A DNA stretch of 64,000 nucleotides from Shigella phage ESh27: sequence record ON528737; one strand, 5' to 3'. This document shows, in pieces, positions 45,939 to 55,793 of the stretch (the first letter of the stretch is position 1; each line of letters starts with the position of its first letter). A program made the translations under genes and the position numbers. The notes under the pieces were generated by a model, which ran no database searches, had not been told where the DNA came from, and was given only the letters and a program-made list of their open reading frames with translations.

Positions 45939-46106
45939 ATGTCAGATAAGATTTGTGTTGTCTGTAAAACTCCAATCGATTCTGCATTGGTTGTTGAAAC
46001 AGACAAAGGTCCAGCACATCCTGGTCCTTGTTATAATTATGTACAACAATTGCCGGTTTCAGAAAGTTCAGAAGAGCAATTGAACGAAACCCAACTTTTA
46101 CTATAG
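45939..46106 (+). CDS. hypothetical small Cys-rich protein (55 aa), uvsY.-2 slot
   Basis: ATG 45939 with AGGAGG SD; CVVCK..and PCYNY Cys pairs suggest a small zinc-binding fold; below track cut-off. Confidence 0.5.
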   Translation: MSDKICVVCKTPIDSALVVETDKGPAHPGPCYNYVQQLPVSESSEEQLNETQLLL

Positions 46107-46110
46107 TGTT

Positions 46111-46160
46111 ACCTTTTTTGCCTATGGTTTTGGCCCTTCCAAAAAGGTCGGGCCTTTTTT
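46111..46160. terminator. bidirectional terminator between uvsY-side operon and uvsW.1
   Basis: GGCCC..GGGCC and AAAAAGG/CCTTTTT stems flanked by T-runs on both strands. Confidence 0.5.
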
Positions 46161-46162
46161 AA

Positions 46163-46393
46163 TTAGAAATCTTCTTCCGCATCCTCATCGTCGCCTTCAA
46201 GTTCGGCACGCTTACCTGCTAAGGCATCCCTGACAGAAATATCATCTGTATCTTTTAATTCCGTTTCTTTTATACGTTTCTTATAATAAGCTTCCAATTC
46301 TTCAAGCCCTTCTAGTGTATGACAACTAGCAATTTTACCCATGAATTCGTCAATAGATGCTTCGTATAAAAATTGTTTAAATTCAAGTACCAT
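46163..46393 (-). CDS. uvsW.1: UvsW.1 (UvsW-associated small protein)
   Basis: 76 aa, directly downstream of uvsW on the same strand as in T4. Confidence 0.6.
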   Translation of the reverse strand: MVLEFKQFLYEASIDEFMGKIASCHTLEGLEELEAYYKKRIKETELKDTDDISVRDALAGKRAELEGDDEDAEEDF

Positions 46394-46418
46394 TTTTATC
46401 TCCTAAGGGCCGAAGCCC

Positions 46419-47933
46419 TTATAAATTAATTGTTTTCATTACATAGTTAAATTTCTCATCAGCGTAACGTTGGATACGATCAATACCGTGTTTTAACAAG
46501 TAATTAAGATGAGTATACTTCTTTTTAGTATTTAATGATTTAGGTTTTACACCTGCGTCATCGATGAGATCCCAAACTGTAGCAACAGCTTTAGAACCAT
46601 GCTTACGAAGCACGCGACCTACGGTTTGAAGTACGATAATTTTTGATTTAACACCATGGGCAAAAATAACATGATGAAGATTCTTGACTGAAATACCGGT
46701 AGAGAATACTCCATATGATGCGACAATAATAATGCCTTTACCATTTTCTGCCATGACTTTAAGCGCGTTACGTGTTTCAGTATCAACTTCACCTGATACG
46801 TAATAAACTTTTTCGTATCCAAGCTCTTTAATAGCTTCAAATATTTCTTTACCGTGTGTAACGTGTTTAAACATTACAAAGGCGTTCTCGTCTTTCTTAG
46901 CCAATTTGACTGAAAGTTGAGCAATCCACTTTGTGCGTCGTTTTAGTCCGGTAATAATTTTAACTTCTTCTTGGTATGTTTTACCTTTTAATTTGGTGGC
47001 GAATTCGTCCGGATAACGAAGGAAAATACTATTAATCTTAAGCTCAGTTACCTGTCCGTCTTCCATTAATTTAGACGTGCTAACAGGACGGAAGATTTCG
47101 CCGAACATACCTACGTACTGCATTACATTGGCTTTTCCGTCTCTTAATGAGCCGGATAAACCGAATTTAAACATGCAATTATTTAATCCTGAGATGATTG
47201 AAGAAATACTTTTGCCTGTTGCTAAGTGGCATTCATCGTTCATCATCATACCGAACTGAGAGAACCATTCTTTAGGCTGCTTAACTACCGTTTGCCATGT
47301 GCCAACAATAATTGGAGCGTCGTTTTTAGATTTGTCCGCTTTATCAGCACCACCGCCAATTTTCTTAATCATCGAATGACTAAACAAGCGATAATCAACA
47401 AAATCATTAGCCATCTGGGTTGTCAATGCTGTTGTAGGGACGATAATGAGAATTTTACCTTCATAGTTCTCTAGATAATATCGAGCTAAAAGTGCTTGGA
47501 TTAGTGATTTACCTGCTGATGTCGGAAGGTTTAAAATTCGACGACGATTAACTAGTCCTTCATATACTGCATCTTTTTGATACCAATGTGGTTCGATTTT
47601 GGCATTGCCTGAATAAATTTCTTGTTTAGAAAGCCATGCGTCAAAATCTTCCCTGGTAAGGTCTTCGGTCTCAAAGATTTTAGGGTCAATCCATACAGAA
47701 TAACTCATATTGTTACAGAACTTTTTTATTTGTCCTACAAGTCCATATGGTAACAAACGATTGTAATCTAAAAGTCGAATTCTACCATCCCAGTTCCCAT
47801 ATTTGTAACGCGGGTTGAATTTGTACCCATCGGCTTCAAAGCTAAAAAAGTCGCGTAATTCATAGAACACGCTTTCGTCGCATTCAATTCTTACATGGCT
47901 AAAATCATAAAAATGTACTTTAATATCTGTCAT
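46419..47933 (-). CDS. uvsW: UvsW DNA/RNA helicase (SF2)
   Basis: 504 aa; Walker A PTSAGKS, DEAH-like NDECH, helicase C-terminal motifs; synteny. Confidence 0.92.
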   Translation of the reverse strand: MTDIKVHFYDFSHVRIECDESVFYELRDFFSFEADGYKFNPRYKYGNWDGRIRLLDYNRLLPYGLVGQIKKFCNNMSYSVWIDPKIFETEDLTREDFDAWLSKQEIYSGNAKIEPHWYQKDAVYEGLVNRRRILNLPTSAGKSLIQALLARYYLENYEGKILIIVPTTALTTQMANDFVDYRLFSHSMIKKIGGGADKADKSKNDAPIIVGTWQTVVKQPKEWFSQFGMMMNDECHLATGKSISSIISGLNNCMFKFGLSGSLRDGKANVMQYVGMFGEIFRPVSTSKLMEDGQVTELKINSIFLRYPDEFATKLKGKTYQEEVKIITGLKRRTKWIAQLSVKLAKKDENAFVMFKHVTHGKEIFEAIKELGYEKVYYVSGEVDTETRNALKVMAENGKGIIIVASYGVFSTGISVKNLHHVIFAHGVKSKIIVLQTVGRVLRKHGSKAVATVWDLIDDAGVKPKSLNTKKKYTHLNYLLKHGIDRIQRYADEKFNYVMKTINL

Positions 47934-47938
47934 AATAA

Positions 47939-48682
47939 TTACCTTAAACGGCCTTTAACATATCCATCTGGGATGGATAACGGATTTACTAATTTATTTA
48001 TAGCCCCGTTATTTACCCATATTCTGCCGGTGGTCGTAGGTTTTACTTCACAACCCTTTCTAGATTTTCTATTAAGTTGGACCATTCCTTTTACAAATCC
48101 TTCAGGCATCGGGTCCTCGGCTGATATAAATCTGTTTTCTTTACCGTTGTTAACACAAATTTTATTTAGAGTTGTAGGATTTTTAGGACCTTTAATTTTA
48201 TCAATCTTTGGCTTTCCTGTACCATACCGCCCGTGGCATGTTGGGTCTTCAGAGTATCGACGTTTATTTGTTTCAGATAGTTTTCTTTTTGTTTCTTCCG
48301 ATCTGTGTTTTCCTAAAAGATTATGACCAAGCCTCTTTATTCGTTCTTTAGCACTATTAGACATTTTAGTCTTATCAGCTTCGGTGTACTTATACCTTCC
48401 ACCTTCACCGCCTTGGCGCATATTATAATACTCGTTAGATTTGACCAAATCCTCTGTTACTAACTGAGCTTCGTATTCTAAAGCTTCAGCGGAAGTTTCA
48501 AATTGTTTAATTATTGAACGTTTAAATGATTCTTCTCCGTATTTTTTGATAGCGCGATTTAAGGCAACACCTGACCCTAGATACGAATCATTTAAATTTT
48601 CTGTAGAATGTTTGCCAATGTACTTTTTACCATTGATTAAATTTACGGTCTCATAAACAAAGTGATACATACTCTTTTCCAT
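47939..48682 (-). CDS. GIY-YIG homing endonuclease (Seg-like, SegE-position)
   Basis: N-terminal YHFVYETVNLINGKKYIGK (GIY-YIG variant), NUMOD-like HSEETKRKLSE repeats, C-terminal RIWVNNG; alternative start at 48670. Confidence 0.75.
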   Translation of the reverse strand: MEKSMYHFVYETVNLINGKKYIGKHSTENLNDSYLGSGVALNRAIKKYGEESFKRSIIKQFETSAEALEYEAQLVTEDLVKSNEYYNMRQGGEGGRYKYTEADKTKMSNSAKERIKRLGHNLLGKHRSEETKRKLSETNKRRYSEDPTCHGRYGTGKPKIDKIKGPKNPTTLNKICVNNGKENRFISAEDPMPEGFVKGMVQLNRKSRKGCEVKPTTTGRIWVNNGAINKLVNPLSIPDGYVKGRLR

Positions 48683-48698
48683 GTAATAAATATAGTTA

Positions 48699-48706
48699 TA
48701 TTTATA
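48699..48706 (-). promoter_or_regulatory. late promoter TATAAATA (Seg-like endonuclease)
   Basis: Reverse-strand TATAAATA 17-29 nt upstream of the candidate start codons. Confidence 0.45.
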
Positions 48707-48719
48707 ATGAGGAAATATC

Positions 48720-49388
48720 ATGATCGATAAAGACTATATTGAAGAGTTACGTGCTCTTTCTGATAAAAAGGAAGCCAAAGCTAAACTGTTCGAATATGCG
48801 AAACAATTTGGCATTAGTGTTAAGAAAACAAAATCATTCGATAATATTGTTATTGATATCGAAGAAGCTCTTAACGCACTGGCTGATGAACCGTTACCTG
48901 AAACTGATGGATTATCTATTACTGATTTAATTACTGCCGCAGATGATGTGGACGGTGTTAATTTCACCAACGAAGAAGTTAAAGAAGAAGCTATTCTGTT
49001 GTTTGATTCTCCAACAGAACAAGTTGAAGTATTAGAAGTTGTCGAACAAGAAAAAGAATTCGACCATGATAAATTTGAAGAAGCAATTACTCAGGTTGTT
49101 GAATCTGAAAAGGAGCCTGAGACAGAGGTAAATAAAGAAGTAAAATTTGTTCTGCCTGAAAATTTTAGTCCTACACTCATTAAATTAGGCAAAGGCCTAG
49201 GATATGTTACTGTTCCTTGGTGGATTTATCAATGGATAGCCGAAACACCTGATTGGAAATCTCGCCCAACCAGTTTTGTGCACGCTTCTGCTCACCAAAC
49301 ATTATTTAGCTTAATTTATTATATTAATCGCGATGGATCAGTTCTAATTCGTGAAACTCGTAATTCTTCTTTCATAACATTAAAATAA
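48720..49388 (+). CDS. inh: putative Inh (inhibitor of prohead protease), by synteny
   Basis: 222 aa, acidic; immediately upstream of hoc as in T4. Confidence 0.5.
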   Translation: MIDKDYIEELRALSDKKEAKAKLFEYAKQFGISVKKTKSFDNIVIDIEEALNALADEPLPETDGLSITDLITAADDVDGVNFTNEEVKEEAILLFDSPTEQVEVLEVVEQEKEFDHDKFEEAITQVVESEKEPETEVNKEVKFVLPENFSPTLIKLGKGLGYVTVPWWIYQWIAETPDWKSRPTSFVHASAHQTLFSLIYYINRDGSVLIRETRNSSFITLK

Positions 49389-49397
49389 GGATAACTT

Positions 49398-50540
49398 ATG
49401 ACATTCACTGTCACGTTATCTCCTTTAACTCCTACAGGGGTTATTGGAGGTTCACAAACATTCACTGCTACACCTGCAGGTGAAACTCCAGATGGTACTA
49501 TTACATATGTCTGGACTGTAGATGATATAGCACAGGAGTCTACGGCTGCTACAATGGATTATACTCTTGCTTCTCCGGCAGGAACAAAAAAAATTAAAGT
49601 GGTTGCAACTAATACACTTTCCGCAGGAGATCCGGAAATAGCTGAAGCGTCAACAACTATCACTGTTAATAAGAAAGAAAATAATTCTACCGTCGCTGTT
49701 ACTCCGGCTTCTCCGGCGGCAGTAGAAATTGGAACAGCAACAACATTCACTGCTAATGTAAGCAATCAACCTAGTGGTGCTGCTATTGCTTATACATGGA
49801 AAGTTGATGGGGTCGCTGTTGATGGTCAAAAGCAATCAACCTTTGAATATACACCAACAACTGAAGGAACTAAGTCTATAACTTGCTCTGTCACAGTGAC
49901 TGCAACTGATTACGTTGATAAAACAGTAGAATCATCAGCGGTTTCTTTGACTGTAAATAAAAAGGCTAATTCTTCAACACTAAAAATTACGCCTGAGTCT
50001 CCGACTACAGTCTTTGGTGTTCCTATTACTTTAACTGCAAATGTCTCCGGTGCACCTTCAGGTGCTACTACATCATTCCAGTGGTCAATGGATGACAGTA
50101 ATATTCCAGATGCAACTTCTGCTACGTATAAATTCACTCCAACCGAGGTCGGAAGTAAAACTCTTAAATGCACCGTATCTGTTTCTGCATCAAATTATGT
50201 TACAAAAGAAATTTCAGCAGAAGCAACAGTAGTAACTAATAATGCTACATTTAATAGTGCCACCATTTCTTTATCTCCCCCATCAGTTAATACTACTGTT
50301 GGTGGAACTGCAACTTTAACAGCATCTGTTACTGGTGCTCCAGGTGATACTAATATTGTGTATTCTTGGAAGAAAGACAACGTAGCAGAAAGTAATTCTA
50401 CTAATACTTACAGTATTGATACCTCCTCAGCTGGTACTCATACAATTAAAGTTGAAGCAGTATTAACTAAAGATAACTATACTTCAAAGACAATTAGTTC
50501 AACCGCTGAAGTTGTTATTGCTGAACGGACTCCAATTGAA
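49398..50540 (+). repeat. four tandem Ig-like domain repeats in hoc
   Basis: Four ~95-aa units each with (T/S)F(T/Q)A..., Y.W... and T..VT/VS..NY/DY signatures. Confidence 0.7.
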
Positions 50541-50813
50541 CCAGAAGGTGAACTACCTTATGTTCATCCTCTTCCACACCGTACTTCAGCTTACATCTGG
50601 TGTGGTTGGTGGGTTATGGATGAAATCCAAAAAATGACTGAAGAAGGTAAAGATTGGAAAATTGACGATCCAGGTAGTAAGTATTACTTGCATCGTTATA
50701 CGCTTCAGAAGATGATGAAAGACTATCCAGAAGTTGATGTTCAAGAATCACGTAATGGATACATCATCCATAAAACTGCGCTAGAAACTGGTATCATTTA
50801 TACATATCCATAA
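49398..50813 (+). CDS. hoc: Hoc highly immunogenic outer capsid protein (4 Ig-like domains + capsid-binding domain)
   Basis: 471 aa; N-terminus MTFTV...TFTATP and C-terminal EPEGELPYVHPLPHR.SAYIWCGWWVMDEIQKMTEEGKDWK match T4 Hoc; four ~95-aa Ig-like repeats. Confidence 0.92.
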   Translation: MTFTVTLSPLTPTGVIGGSQTFTATPAGETPDGTITYVWTVDDIAQESTAATMDYTLASPAGTKKIKVVATNTLSAGDPEIAEASTTITVNKKENNSTVAVTPASPAAVEIGTATTFTANVSNQPSGAAIAYTWKVDGVAVDGQKQSTFEYTPTTEGTKSITCSVTVTATDYVDKTVESSAVSLTVNKKANSSTLKITPESPTTVFGVPITLTANVSGAPSGATTSFQWSMDDSNIPDATSATYKFTPTEVGSKTLKCTVSVSASNYVTKEISAEATVVTNNATFNSATISLSPPSVNTTVGGTATLTASVTGAPGDTNIVYSWKKDNVAESNSTNTYSIDTSSAGTHTIKVEAVLTKDNYTSKTISSTAEVVIAERTPIEPEGELPYVHPLPHRTSAYIWCGWWVMDEIQKMTEEGKDWKIDDPGSKYYLHRYTLQKMMKDYPEVDVQESRNGYIIHKTALETGIIYTYP

Positions 50814-50817
50814 TCGT

Positions 50818-50845
50818 AAGGGGCTTCGGCCCCTTTCTTCGTTTT
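50818..50845 (+). terminator. rho-independent terminator after hoc
   Basis: AAGGGGC-TTCG-GCCCCTT hairpin followed by T-rich tract. Confidence 0.6.
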
Positions 50846-50907
50846 AAAGCATATAAAACACAACTTGAGATTGATGTATATAATGGCACAAACCAAATAA
50901 CACTGGA

Positions 50908-51108
50908 TTGATTATGAGAGCTGAAGTTGAAGTTTATACATTACATGAGGCGGGATTTTCATTCGTAGAAATTGCTCAAAAAATCGGTTTACAACCTAAA
51001 GAAGTTGGATTACTATGGACTAAAGCCGAGACAGCTCGGTCAAAGTTTAAAGCAAAAGAAAAAGTTGTATACCGTAAACGTTTGATTAACAAAAAGGTGA
51101 AGAAATGA
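50908..51108 (+). CDS. hypothetical protein (66 aa), 24.3 slot
   Basis: ORF track; between hoc and rnlB. Confidence 0.45.
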   Translation: MIMRAEVEVYTLHEAGFSFVEIAQKIGLQPKEVGLLWTKAETARSKFKAKEKVVYRKRLINKKVKK

Positions 51109-51356
51109 GTTTTGCACAGGAATTAAGAGAAAGGGCCCTGGCCACTAAAGCCAATTTGTTGAGTGATTTTATTACTAACTTCTCTGTGATGGCAGAGAAA
51201 GCCGCTGACAAAGGCCAGACACAATTCACGTACTATCCGTCAAAGAATGATTTAACTATAACTGAACAAGTCGGTCAATGGCTTCGTGATAATGGCTTTC
51301 AGTACAAAATTAATCATGACCAGCGTGATGGTCATTGGATAGAAATCAAGTTCTAA
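51105..51356 (+). CDS. hypothetical protein (83 aa), 24.2 slot
   Basis: ORF track; ATGA overlap with upstream ORF. Confidence 0.45.
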   Translation: MSFAQELRERALATKANLLSDFITNFSVMAEKAADKGQTQFTYYPSKNDLTITEQVGQWLRDNGFQYKINHDQRDGHWIEIKF

Positions 51357-51384
51357 TATGCTTTACATTTTTTGATGGTATAAT
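51356..51384 (+). promoter_or_regulatory. MotA-dependent middle promoter (rnlB)
   Basis: MotA box ATATGCTTTA (51356-51365), 13-nt spacer, -10 TATAAT (51379-51384). Confidence 0.5.
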
Positions 51385-51475
51385 GAATCTAGGTTCTATC
51401 CATTCAAATTAAACATCGGGTCGGAGATAGAGTCTCTGCTAATTATTTTGATATTATTATTTATAATGGTGATTT

Positions 51476-52483
51476 ATGTTTAAGAAATACAGCAGTCTTG
51501 AAAACCACTACAATAGCAAGTTTATTGAGAAAATTCGTTCACAAGGACTTGATGTAGGCGTTTGGGTAGCACGTGAGAAAATCCATGGGACCAACTTCTC
51601 GTTAATAATTGAACGTGACAACGTCACATGCGCCAAGCGCACAGGCCCTATTCTTCCAGCAGAAGATTTTTATGGTTATGAAATAGTACTCAAAAAGTAT
51701 GATAAAGCTATTAAAGGCGTTCAAGAAGTCATGGGCAGTATTTCAACTTCAGTGCCGGTGACATATCAAGTCTTTGGTGAATTCGCTGGTGGTGGAATTC
51801 AGAAAGGTGTTGACTACGGTGAAAAAGATTTCTATGTATTCGATATCATCATAAACACTGAAAGCGGTGATACTTATTACATGAGTGATTACGAAATGCA
51901 AGATTTCTGTAATACGTTTGGTTTTAAAATGGCACCAATGCTTGGACGTGGAACATTTGATGCTCTTATCATGATTCCAAACGACCTTGATTCCGTCTTA
52001 GCCGCTTATAACGCTACTGCATCAGAAGACCTTGTCGAAGCAAATAATTGCGTATTTGATGCTAATGTTATTGGCGATAATACGGCAGAAGGTTATGTTC
52101 TGAAGCCTTGTTTCCCTAAATGGCTGCCAAACGGTACTCGTGTAGCGATTAAGTGCAAGAACTCTAAATTCAGTGAAAAGAAAAAGTCTGATAAGCCTAT
52201 TAAAACTCAGGTTCCATTAACTGAAATTGACAAAAACTTGCTTGATGTTCTAGCTTGTTATGTTACATTAAATCGTGTTAATAATGTTATTTCTAAGATT
52301 GGGACTGTAACGCCAAAAGATTTTGGCAAAGTGATGGGATTGACTGTTCAAGATATTCTGGAAGAAACTTCTCGTGAAGGTATTGTATTAACATCATCTG
52401 ATAATCCGAATCTTGTTAAGAAAGAATTAGTCCGAATGGTGCAAGATGTTCTGCGTCCTGCATGGATTGAATTAGTATCATAA
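51476..52483 (+). CDS. rnlB: RNA ligase 2
   Basis: 335 aa; [19 protein letters not shown]... and adenylation lysine motif [10 protein letters not shown] match recalled T4 Rnl2 (334 aa). Confidence 0.92.
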
Positions 52484-52518: not shown

Positions 52519-53802
52519 TTATTCATCTATAATAATTTTAGGCAATTTAACACCAAGTAAAACAGACAAGTCTGAACGTCCTGCCATTTTATCCATGTCC
52601 CCGCCATCAATTACTCTCGCTTCTTTTTCATCTTTTGCTACTGTGTAAGGATTTGCTGATAAAGCATATCTAACCAATAAACCTATAGATGGTTGTAAGC
52701 TTTCCGGATCAACTACAACTTTAAATGCACCGACATGTTCCGGGTCGTCTAAATCCATTCCTTCAGTGTATGGAGCATAAAAGATGGACCCTACAATTTC
52801 TTTTTCGCCGATATTTTCTACAACACCCACAATAACATAATCTAACGGACTGTTAGTATCGCAATAAAGCGGTAAACCATTAGCTAAGAACCCGTAAGCA
52901 TTTTGTGAAAGATACTTATCATCTTCTGGTTTATGTTTTAACCAACCGGAAGCAGCAAGAATAGCAGCTGCACGAGCTGAAGCTACACAAAACGTCGCAG
53001 TATAAGTTGACTCTTTTTGAATGTGGGATACCATTTCACACACCATTCGATATAACGAACGACCTGCTTCCGGAGCGGATGCATAGCTCAAGTCAATAAA
53101 TCCAGTGTCAGTAATTCCAGTAACTTTATAACGTTTCGATACAGTAATTAAAGACTGAAGAATATCTTTATTAATTTCATCAGCCATTTCAGTAGCAAGC
53201 AAATCTTCTAAGAAGTTAGGGGCATCAAATCCATTCGCTTCCAAATCTTGCGCTAATTCAACCGTGAGACCGGTTTTAAGTTTACGAGATTTGACTGAAG
53301 TTTGCCATTTATTAATCTGGAATCTTGCATCAGAAATTTCGCTACCAGAGCTTTCAAATTTGCTTGTCACCGCTGCATCTGAAAATAACCGTACCTTTAA
53401 ATGAACGACTGCAATCTGAAGAGCCAATTCTAGATCACTTTCTTGAATATCTGCAAATGGCGTATCTTCTAACACTTTATAGACGATATTATTATATTTG
53501 AAAAAATCGCCTTTATTTAGTGTGACTTTTGATTCTTCTGTGAGCTCGGTAATTTTTTCTCGGTCTACATATCCAGCTTCACCTGCATAAGTAGCACCAG
53601 TTTTAAACGTTAATTCGTTGTCTGGGTTAAGATATTTGATACCATAAAAAGCAGCAACAGGTTGATTAGTTCTTTGTGTTGCTACAATGTCAGAATATAT
53701 TAATTTAGTCGTAGCGCGAGTCAAAGCAACGAGATTTGGGCGACCAATTGAGTTGCTAGTAGACGTTGTAGATTCACGCAATAATTTTTGGATTTTACTC
53801 AT
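52519..53802 (-). CDS. 24: gp24 head vertex protein
   Basis: 427 aa (T4 gp24 427 aa); gp23-like fold region; synteny; late promoter upstream. Confidence 0.9.
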   Translation of the reverse strand: MSKIQKLLRESTTSTSNSIGRPNLVALTRATTKLIYSDIVATQRTNQPVAAFYGIKYLNPDNELTFKTGATYAGEAGYVDREKITELTEESKVTLNKGDFFKYNNIVYKVLEDTPFADIQESDLELALQIAVVHLKVRLFSDAAVTSKFESSGSEISDARFQINKWQTSVKSRKLKTGLTVELAQDLEANGFDAPNFLEDLLATEMADEINKDILQSLITVSKRYKVTGITDTGFIDLSYASAPEAGRSLYRMVCEMVSHIQKESTYTATFCVASARAAAILAASGWLKHKPEDDKYLSQNAYGFLANGLPLYCDTNSPLDYVIVGVVENIGEKEIVGSIFYAPYTEGMDLDDPEHVGAFKVVVDPESLQPSIGLLVRYALSANPYTVAKDEKEARVIDGGDMDKMAGRSDLSVLLGVKLPKIIIDE

Positions 53803-53828
53803 TGCATTTTTCCTTATGTGATATAGAT

Positions 53829-53836
53829 TATTTATA
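53829..53836 (-). promoter_or_regulatory. late promoter TATAAATA (gene 24)
   Basis: Reverse-strand TATAAATA ~27 nt upstream of gene 24 ATG. Confidence 0.55.
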
Positions 53837-53842
53837 AAGATT

Positions 53843-53872
53843 GTTTACAACGTATTTGGTATGTGATACTAT
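53843..53872 (+). promoter_or_regulatory. early sigma70-type promoter (89-aa ORF between 24 and 23)
   Basis: -35 GTTTAC, 18-nt spacer, -10 TACTAT in TGTGATACTATAGAC block. Confidence 0.5.
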
Positions 53873-53902
53873 AGACTTATTAACTACAGAGGAGTAAACA
53901 AA

Positions 53903-54172
53903 ATGACTAAAGCACGTTTCTTACGAGATACTTTAAAAGTTCTGGAAGCTGAAGCGGTTAAGTTAGTAGAAAAATATGGTGCAAAAGTTAATGGTAATGC
54001 CTTCAACAAAGTATGGATGAAAGTTGATTCTGAAGCTCGAGCTAAAGGCTATTGGGCCACCGATAAACTTGCATCATTCAAAAACAAAGACGGTTCTCCA
54101 GCATATGTCCAAGAAGGTATGCCTAATTGGCAAAATATTTTGAAAACTTACATCGAAATTGCACAGAAATAA
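53903..54172 (+). CDS. hypothetical protein (89 aa) in the 23/24 intergenic accessory slot
   Basis: Own early promoter 53843-53872 and AGAGGAG SD; opposite strand to flanking late genes; T4 carries segD at this position. Confidence 0.5.
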   Translation: MTKARFLRDTLKVLEAEAVKLVEKYGAKVNGNAFNKVWMKVDSEARAKGYWATDKLASFKNKDGSPAYVQEGMPNWQNILKTYIEIAQK

Positions 54173-54200
54173 AACCAAAAATGGGAGACCGAAGTCTCCC
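54171..54200 (-). terminator. rho-independent terminator after gene 23
   Basis: Minus-strand GGGAGAC-UUCG-GUCUCCC then AUUUUUGGUUUU. Confidence 0.7.
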
Positions 54201-54224
54201 AAAATAAGATTTAATCAATTAAGA

Positions 54225-55793
54225 TTAGATGCCTTTTACATATACACGGCGGAAGTAAGCGTTCTTACCAAGGCTGTTCAGGATAGACGGCATACCGGAC
54301 TGGATGCGAGCACCTGGAGCCTGCAGGGAACTTTCAGCAAACGGGTTAACACCGATACCGTAACGAGTTTTAAAGCCCATTACCGGCTGGAAGTTCTTAG
54401 GATCGGAACCACGCAGTGGGGTAAGTGCAACGTAAGGAGCATAGTAAATACCTGCATCCATTTCGTTAGCGCCTTTGTAACCAACGGTGAAGTAATCCTG
54501 TTTAGCATATTGGTCGATGTATACGCGGTATTTACCACCAAGTACACCGGCAAATACGGACTTAGTAGTGTCGGTATTAAAACCAGAAGCCAGACCCTGT
54601 GCAGCATAAGAAATGCCAGTATCAACTGAAGCCAGTACGTTAACTACGTTACGGGAAGCGATAATGAAGTTACCTTCACCACGACCGGTTTGACGAGCAA
54701 TTTCAACTGCTTCTTTATCAATCTGGAACAACAGAGATTTAAAGCTTTCACCAGCCCAACGAGCACCACGGATATCAATCGGGTCCTGGAAGTCAAATAC
54801 ACCAGCTTTAGAACCCGGAGTCAGGGTCATACCAGATTTACCAACCTGAGCGGAGTAGTTAATCCAGTCAACAACTTCACGGTTGATTTCTAGCATAATT
54901 TCTGTAGCCAGGATACCGCTCAGTTCAGCATCAGCATCCATACCGTGTACTGCACGGAGGTCTTGTGCCAATTCGATGGAGTAAGCTGCTTTCAGCTGAC
55001 GAGATTTAGCTTCAATAACTTGTTTGTCGATACGGAAGCCCATTTCGTTCCATGGGTTATCAGTAGAACCGTTGAAACCTTCCTGGAGTTCAGCGATAGA
55101 AGTAGCCATACCTTCAGCGATTTCTACCAGTGCACCAGCTTCCATTTGTTTCTTAATTTCAGCATCTAATTTAGTTGCATCGTTAGCACTAGCATCGATT
55201 GTTACTACAGCGGAAGCTTGCAGATATACAGTACCAGTTTCCTGGAAGAAGTGAGTATAGATATCACCTACAACGGTTTGTGTGCTAGCAGCCAACGCCG
55301 GGAATTTCTTAGCAGCGCCCTGACCAGAGAACATTGCATCCGGAGCATACATCGGATGGAAAGCTTCTTTAGCGCCAGCAGCGATAGGGTCTTTACCATA
55401 TACTGCACGGAGAGCAAATACCTGACCGGTAGGGCTGTTCATAGGCTGAACACCACAAATATCAAAAGCGATCAGATTAGGAATAGCACGACGAACCATA
55501 CCCATAACTGCTGGCCCAATCTGGGTTACTGCACCAGAGGTTTGACCTGCTGCGATGTTCTGAGCATTATAACCGTGGTCACCACCAATTTCAGCTTCGG
55601 TCAAGAAAGAACCAAATGCCTGAGCGATTTTCTCGTCTTTATATTCAGGGGATACTTCGAAATCTTTTTCCTGGTTTTCGAAGATTTTAGCGATAATAGC
55701 CTGCTTGCTATTAGCGATTTCCGGCAGGCCTTCACCTTCCAGCAGTTCTTTCCATTTGTCTACGAGCTGAGCTTTAGTTTTGATAGTAGTCAT
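54225..55793 (-). CDS. 23: gp23 major capsid protein
   Basis: 522 aa; N-terminal propeptide ..FLTEAEIGGDHGYNA.. cleavage region and overall sequence match T4 gp23 (521 aa). Confidence 0.97.
   Translation of the reverse strand: MTTIKTKAQLVDKWKELLEGEGLPEIANSKQAIIAKIFENQEKDFEVSPEYKDEKIAQAFGSFLTEAEIGGDHGYNAQNIAAGQTSGAVTQIGPAVMGMVRRAIPNLIAFDICGVQPMNSPTGQVFALRAVYGKDPIAAGAKEAFHPMYAPDAMFSGQGAAKKFPALAASTQTVVGDIYTHFFQETGTVYLQASAVVTIDASANDATKLDAEIKKQMEAGALVEIAEGMATSIAELQEGFNGSTDNPWNEMGFRIDKQVIEAKSRQLKAAYSIELAQDLRAVHGMDADAELSGILATEIMLEINREVVDWINYSAQVGKSGMTLTPGSKAGVFDFQDPIDIRGARWAGESFKSLLFQIDKEAVEIARQTGRGEGNFIIASRNVVNVLASVDTGISYAAQGLASGFNTDTTKSVFAGVLGGKYRVYIDQYAKQDYFTVGYKGANEMDAGIYYAPYVALTPLRGSDPKNFQPVMGFKTRYGIGVNPFAESSLQAPGARIQSGMPSILNSLGKNAYFRRVYVKGI

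Follow-up and report, generated by a model that had tools for sequence, protein, structure and literature searches.

A probable SegE-type homing endonuclease gene at the inh/uvsW site of a Mosigvirus and the mosaic uvsW 5′ end beside it

The 64,000-nt stretch of Shigella phage ESh27 DNA that was analyzed here (record ON528737, hereafter the window) very probably carries an intact SegE-type free-standing homing endonuclease gene, the Mosigvirus counterpart of T4 segE at the inh/uvsW site. The records nearest to the window are 98.6-99.9% identical over the segE region and place it among the T4-like coliphages of the genus Mosigvirus. The gene is an ordinary member of a well-documented family that represents no new kind of element or mechanism, and several deposited genomes already have it annotated as a homing endonuclease; the family, the locus, and the mechanism are textbook knowledge of T4. 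The present analysis adds a clean population-level footprint and the modular mosaic of the protein.

The segE-like coding sequence was assigned to 47939..48670 on the minus strand (243 aa and a stop codon) based on the list of open reading frames (ORFs), the start of T4 SegE, and the 732-nt or 744-nt coding sequences of relatives. The longest minus-strand ORF (47939..48721) encodes 260 aa from its first ATG, and the candidate start codons are located at 48721, 48682 (247 aa), and 48670 (243 aa, MYHFVYE). The ATG at 48670 is probably the start because T4 SegE and four annotated relatives begin there, and a GGA is found 9 nt upstream of it. The ATG at 48682 is annotated as the start in the records of three other relatives, and T4 contains no ATG at the positions that match the upstream starts, including 48682. 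A start at 48721 is improbable because the longest ORF overlaps the start of inh. Both neighboring genes were defined by their ORFs and the annotation of relatives: the uvsW helicase gene (46419-47933, minus strand) is separated by a gap of 5 nt from the downstream end of segE, and inh (48720-49388, plus strand), encoding the inhibitor of prohead protease, is divergent from segE. No terminator-like site was found between segE and uvsW, and the two genes are probably co-transcribed. An earlier sequence-only reading had proposed a Seg-like GIY-YIG ORF between uvsW and inh, which was confirmed by the ORF, the Pfam matches, and the flanking genes; the two peptides quoted in that reading (YHFVYETVNLINGKKYIGK and RIWVNNG) are both found in the translation. 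A tblastn search of the window for paralogues of segE returned only segE itself. Downstream of uvsW, a 76-aa ORF (46163-46393, minus strand) is annotated as "DNA helicase" or UvsW.1 in relatives; its counterpart in Yersinia phage MHG19 matches Pfam UvsW-1, and separate uvsW and uvsW.1 ORFs are the split arrangement usual in T4-like phages.

The protein matches the Pfam families SegE_GIY-YIG (PF19835, 29.7 bits, cutoff 25) and GIY-YIG (25.8 bits, cutoff 22.6), and the best PHROG is PHROG 314 "homing endonuclease" (E = 3e-43). Three parts were distinguished, all encoded on the minus strand: a GIY-YIG catalytic domain (aa 1-91, 48398..48670), a helical linker with the NUMOD3-like motif GKHRSEETKRKLSETNKRR (aa 96-165, 48176..48385), and two repeated beta-hairpin modules (aa 166-205 and 206-243, 47942..48175) that form the presumed DNA-binding tail. 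An AlphaFold (AF2) model of the protein, built from 79 homologues, displays pLDDT values of 96-98 across the N-terminal domain, helices at 101-145 (247-aa numbering) within the linker, and two C-terminal hairpins over which the mean pLDDT of 10-residue blocks is 82-97. The NUMOD3 match of the linker is sub-threshold (17.1 bits, cutoff 20.4). The two hairpin modules align as an internal repeat with the consensus xxVNNGxxNxxIxxxxxxPxG[FY]VKG, and the last module matches a PHROG of HNH homing endonucleases. A search with the C-terminal tail identified no Pfam family and no convincing match in the PDB. The RIWVNNG tail previously described as DNA-binding is present in the protein, and a role of its hairpin modules in binding DNA is suggested by their position and by the modular design of I-TevI.

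The best structural match of the AF2 model is the catalytic domain from I-TevI, the endonuclease of the T4 td intron (PDB 1MK0/1LN0). A sequence search of the PDB with the single protein gave nothing meaningful, and a profile of the family reached I-TevI marginally (E = 0.015). Within the profile alignment, residues Y6, Y17, E67, and N83 (243-aa numbering) pair with Y6, Y17, E75, and N90 of I-TevI; Y6, Y17, and N83 are invariant among the 79 homologues and E67 is present in at least 90% of them. No residue in this alignment pairs with R27 of I-TevI, the helix of which falls into a gap. The canonical Arg is also missing in T4 SegE and in all 79 homologues, which instead contain a loop with invariant H21, Y30, G32, and S33 (KH...D.Y.GSG, invariant in the SegE family). 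The sequence-only reading had named the loss of the Arg or Glu of the GIY-YIG core as a sign of a degenerate domain. The Glu is kept, together with the Asn, and the canonical Arg helix is without a counterpart, as in T4 SegE. Since T4 SegE, which is biochemically active (PMC2988022, PMC2330249), shows this arrangement too, the lack of the Arg appears, as judged from the alignment, to be a trait of the SegE family and not degeneration, and the Arg criterion would not apply to the SegE subfamily.

The similarity to I-TevI extends to the modular layout, in which a nuclease at the N-terminus is followed by an extended DNA-binding region at the C-terminus, but sequence identity to the window protein is only ~21-24%, the R27-bearing helix stands in place of the SegE loop, and I-TevI is intron-encoded and equipped with a zinc finger and a helix-turn-helix whereas the window gene is free-standing. 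The structural match and the annotation "group I intron endonuclease" in the KAW3E185 record are the two observations that would favor an intron-encoded I-TevI-like endonuclease. Such an identity is extremely improbable given that the gene is located between two genes and not within one, that both flanking genes are intact and separate, and that relatives with an empty site have the same flanking genes uninterrupted with just a 50-nt spacer between them. Furthermore, an Rfam search of positions 46000-51000 (E <= 1) identified no intron or relevant RNA element, and no zinc-finger or helix-turn-helix family was detected in the window protein in the Pfam search.

The best characterised homologue of the free-standing SegE-type enzyme is T4 SegE (205 aa), which is 49% identical over the full length with a gap of 51 columns in the middle of the protein. 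T4 segE is described as a free-standing gene inserted between inh and uvsW that targets uvsW and for which homing was demonstrated (PMC2988022). In RB30 and RB52, which are without segE, T4 SegE is reported to cleave in the hoc.1-uvsW region, and homing to be ~100% efficient with co-conversion of the flanks (PMC2330249). The location of cleavage differs slightly between the two sources ("uvsW" in PMC2988022 and "hoc.1-uvsW intergenic region" in PMC2330249), both of which cite Kadyrov et al. (1997) for T4 SegE. The order of genes in the T4 record is hoc(-), inh(-), segE(+), uvsW(+), identical to that of the window, so that the proposed correspondence to the position of T4 segE was borne out. 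A blastn comparison of T4 with the window runs through both junctions at 71-76% identity and is interrupted solely in the middle part of segE (48106-48483). The two loci share the orientation (inh<- ->segE->uvsW), the start motif MYHFVYET, a sporadic distribution, and a uvsW 5′ tract that is diverged from that of the empty relative. T4 SegE differs from the window protein in that it is without the ~50-aa helical NUMOD3-like linker and carries a basic C-terminal extension of 12 aa that is missing in the window protein. Activity was demonstrated for the T4 enzyme, and that of the window protein is predicted.

SegE-like genes are found in the same inh/uvsW slot in Yersinia phage MHG19 (P0005, 216 aa) and in a metagenomic T4-like contig (P0002, 187 aa), both with the gene order inh(-), segE(+), uvsW(+), as in T4. 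The identity of the window protein to these alleles and to T4 SegE depends on the part of the protein that is compared. The GIY-YIG part (aa 1-95) is 85% identical to P0002, 70% to MHG19, and 67% to T4 SegE. The linker (aa 96-165) is 71% identical to P0002 and 61% to MHG19, and shows no similarity to T4 SegE at the DNA or protein level. The hairpin modules (aa 166-243) display 48-49% identity to P0002, 45-50% to MHG19, and 60-76% to T4 SegE. P0002 and MHG19 contain a single C-terminal hairpin module, in contrast to the two T4-like modules of the window protein. Overall, the window protein looks like a mosaic with an N-terminus and linker similar to the MHG19/P0002-type allele and a C-terminus similar to T4 SegE.

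Of the 141 Mosigvirus records that match, 10 carry segE (>=99.4% identity), and the remaining ones match only the 46 nt next to inh. The empty phages contain a clean uvsW-inh spacer of 50 nt with no remnant of segE. Set against eight empty-site Mosigvirus genomes, one of which is O157 typing phage 3, the window contains an extra segment of 737 nt (47942..48678, without strand assignment) that is flanked by a 2-nt GG repeat (ATGG/...AAGG/TAATT, with slashes marking the junctions). On the coding strand, the empty site reads TATAAATATAACTATATTTATTAC ATGG/TAATTTGAC ATG(uvsW) and the occupied site reads ...TTAC ATGG/AAAAGAGT ATG...(segE)...TTTAAGG/TAATTATT ATG(uvsW). This junction would fit either a gain by homing or a precise loss between the GG repeats. 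The empty site of T2, a Tequatrovirus without segE, is almost identical to that of the Mosigviruses, with 9 differences over the 98 positions that start at the inh ATG and end at uvsW nt 45; 98-nt intervals further into uvsW contain 14-28 differences each.

A T4-type late promoter motif (TATAAATA, exact match) is located at 48699-48706 on the minus strand, 28 nt upstream of the segE ATG, and T4 contains the motif at the same distance from its segE. The window contains 21 copies of TATAAATA, approximately three-fold more than the 7.3 expected; the expectation came from shuffled sequences, none of which contained as many as 21. The same motif is present in the 50-nt spacer of the empty-site phages, directly upstream of uvsW, as well as in T2, and the SA79RD record annotates the spacer copy as a late promoter. 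Because the empty sites carry an identical TATAAATA upstream of uvsW, the promoter is not segE's own; from the comparison of sites, the upstream motif is the resident late promoter of uvsW and segE was inserted between this promoter and uvsW. The suggestion that segE has its own late promoter was therefore correct for the presence of an exact motif directly upstream and incorrect for its ownership. A second exact TATAAATA (47995-48002, minus strand) is embedded in the 3′ end of segE, where the codons encode GAINKL; it precedes the uvsW ATG by 62 nt and is a candidate replacement promoter that may serve uvsW. T4 differs at the matching place, where it has AATAAATA. The embedded motif agrees with the statement that segE contains promoters for the gene downstream of it (PMC2988022). 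Sigma-70-like sites were not enriched, no terminators were found, and the region upstream of segE shows no MotA-box middle promoter pattern. The inh-segE spacer also contains a near-perfect palindrome (48687-48706, ATAAATATA-GT-TATATTTAT) that reads an exact TATAAATA toward segE and uvsW and AATAAATA toward inh. The palindrome is conserved in T4, T2, and the empty-site Mosigviruses, and looks like a bidirectional late promoter.

The promoter within segE raises the question of what maintains the gene. One explanation is that segE is a decaying or inactive relic retained for the promoter and ribosome-binding site that uvsW now needs: the embedded TATAAATA and the uvsW Shine-Dalgarno sequence (AAGG) are both located inside the 3′ end of segE, embedded promoters favor keeping an endonuclease gene (PMC2988022), and the canonical Arg is missing. 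However, the segE ORF is intact in all 11 carrier genomes, the nine variable segE sites among them comprise seven synonymous and two nonsynonymous changes, and dN/dS is 0.07-0.08 for the nuclease and linker (compared with P0002) and 0.10 for the C-terminal modules (compared with T4). The gene thus appears to be under purifying selection, and with intact ORFs, mostly synonymous changes, and a dN/dS of 0.07-0.10 a relic is very unlikely. The relic explanation is further opposed by the conservation of nearly all family-invariant residues, by the diversity of segE, which is low compared with that of the flanks and points to a recent spread, and by the empty-site phages, which express uvsW without segE so that retention of the gene is not forced.

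The population footprint of the segE gene was analyzed in a 14-kb alignment around the locus that includes four carriers and four empty phages. The background divergence is ~1-3%. In the 300-nt intervals that cover the uvsW 5′ end, the difference from the window rises to 6-17% in the empty phages but not in the carriers. Among the 21 fixed differences between carriers and non-carriers in the 14 kb (four vs four), 18 are located at 47817-47934, corresponding to uvsW nt 1-117, and the uvsW 5′ differences are nearly all synonymous with a single amino acid change (T22V). The resulting tract of mosaic, mostly synonymous polymorphism linked to segE (47793..47941, minus strand) covers the segE-uvsW spacer and uvsW nt 1-141; in empty alleles it probably contains the sequence that SegE recognizes and cuts. 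The tract resolves into recombining blocks once more genomes are added: in BEU50, segE is combined with empty-type blocks (B and C) at uvsW nt 36-81, OLB35 is without segE but has carrier-type blocks from uvsW nt 63 on, and ZQ3 has an intermediate tract. Perfect linkage to segE is limited to the spacer and to uvsW nt 6 and 9. A simple origin of the whole uvsW tract from one foreign donor was rejected based on the presence of blocks D and E in empty Mosigviruses and on the combination of segE with empty-type blocks in BEU50. Codon 9 of uvsW (47907-47909) is TAT, CAT, CAC, or CGC in the 11 carriers, which are otherwise nearly identical, encoding Tyr, His, or Arg. Its interpretation as a cleavage scar is unsupported, as the Tyr/His polymorphism is also found in the empty phage G53 and in T4, both of which encode His.

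Two further comparisons address the age of the gene and the recurrence of the tract. Divergence among carriers is 0.39% in segE and 1.5-2.1% in the uvsW and inh flanks (4-5x less in segE), indicating that the common ancestor of the gene is more recent than that of the carrier genomes. Between T4 and T2, the first two 100-nt intervals of uvsW contain 28 and 11 differences, respectively, and the later intervals mostly contain 0-2, with 5 and 8 in two of them. A cross-genus partition test with T4, the window, T2, and O157 typing phage 3 identified 10 columns that partition by segE status and 10 that partition by genus within uvsW nt 1-150, compared with 0 by segE status and 101 by genus within nt 151-600 (Fisher p = 1.5e-9, four genomes).

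Homing with co-conversion of neighboring markers, the biology implied by the sequence-only reading, fits both the presence and absence of segE among near-identical phages and the mosaic uvsW 5′ tract. The footprints are compatible with, without proving, a conserved spacer-uvsW target that was repeatedly broken and repaired from segE templates with variable tract lengths. An alternative is that the nuclease is active but that the mosaic reflects an ordinary recombination or selection hotspot at the translation start of uvsW, in carriers that share one ancestor. A hotspot agrees with the distribution of the blocks (D and E are of the carrier type in the empty ZQ3 and OLB35, B and C of the empty type in the carrier BEU50) and with the polymorphism of uvsW codon 9 in empty phages such as G53. 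This alternative is nevertheless unlikely, since the localised divergence recurs independently between T4 and T2 (28 differences in the first 100 nt), the ten columns that split by segE status across genera are confined to nt 1-150, and segE is far less diverged than its flanks, which shows that the carriers are no simple clone. In addition, both sources report exactly the uvsW 5′ region as the target of T4 SegE (PMC2988022, PMC2330249).

The uvsW tract also bears on the mosaic protein. Mosigvirus SegE might be a natural chimera, recombined from two alleles that compete for the inh/uvsW site, with a nuclease domain and NUMOD3 linker of the MHG19/P0002 type and a double-hairpin tail of the T4 type, in which case the polymorphisms in uvsW nt 1-150 that carriers of both genera share would record the homing of a SegE-type cassette between Tequatrovirus and Mosigvirus; this is a tentative reading that is rather doubtful at present. 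Alternatively, the mosaic could have arisen by differential loss of modules from a longer ancestor together with convergent protective substitutions.

The homing of segE into the inh/uvsW site may proceed as follows, where we infer the enzymatic activity, the exact cut site, the promoter use, and the protective substitutions. The segE gene would be transcribed late from the resident TATAAATA promoter, which drives uvsW in phages without segE. In a mixed infection with a segE-less relative, the enzyme would use its C-terminal hairpin and NUMOD3 modules to bind the conserved empty site, which begins in the inh-uvsW spacer and reaches some tens of nucleotides into uvsW, and would cut near the uvsW 5′ end. 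Recombinational repair from the segE genome would then transfer segE and, by co-conversion, a uvsW 5′ stretch of variable length, and the carrier's own site, being interrupted and substituted, would be less prone to self-cleavage. Free-standing homing endonucleases shape which alleles survive co-infection by related phages, which is relevant where T4-like phages are mixed in therapy cocktails. The locus is a clean natural example with an identifiable empty site, graded recombinant uvsW 5′ alleles, and endonuclease alleles with shuffled DNA-binding modules, and could be used to study, on a small scale, how targets are recognized and how long co-conversion tracts are.

Additional polymorphic and mosaic segments were observed in the neighborhood of the locus. 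A second polymorphic homing-endonuclease site is located at 53803-54224, between gene 24 (52519-53802, minus strand) and gene 23 (54225-55793, minus strand). KAW3E185 and JK45 carry a 660-nt segD-like GIY-YIG gene between these two genes; the endonuclease site of the window is empty and contains only an 89-aa ORF (53903-54172). The hoc gene (49398-50813, plus strand) encodes 471 aa with Ig-like repeats, and its nucleotide sequence is ~35-46% diverged from hoc in each of the seven Mosigvirus genomes of the comparison. The hoc gene of AlbertHofmann is of nearly the same length, yet it is equally among the diverged ones, and the adjacent inh gene is only 1-4% diverged. The boundaries of the hoc divergence are sharp (~49390 and ~50600), which suggests a cassette-like replacement of this head decoration gene. 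The 5′ part of rnlB (51329-52078) forms a local mosaic segment that is 8-15% diverged from most relatives, with a patch from ~51630 that is only 2-3% diverged from LF82-41.
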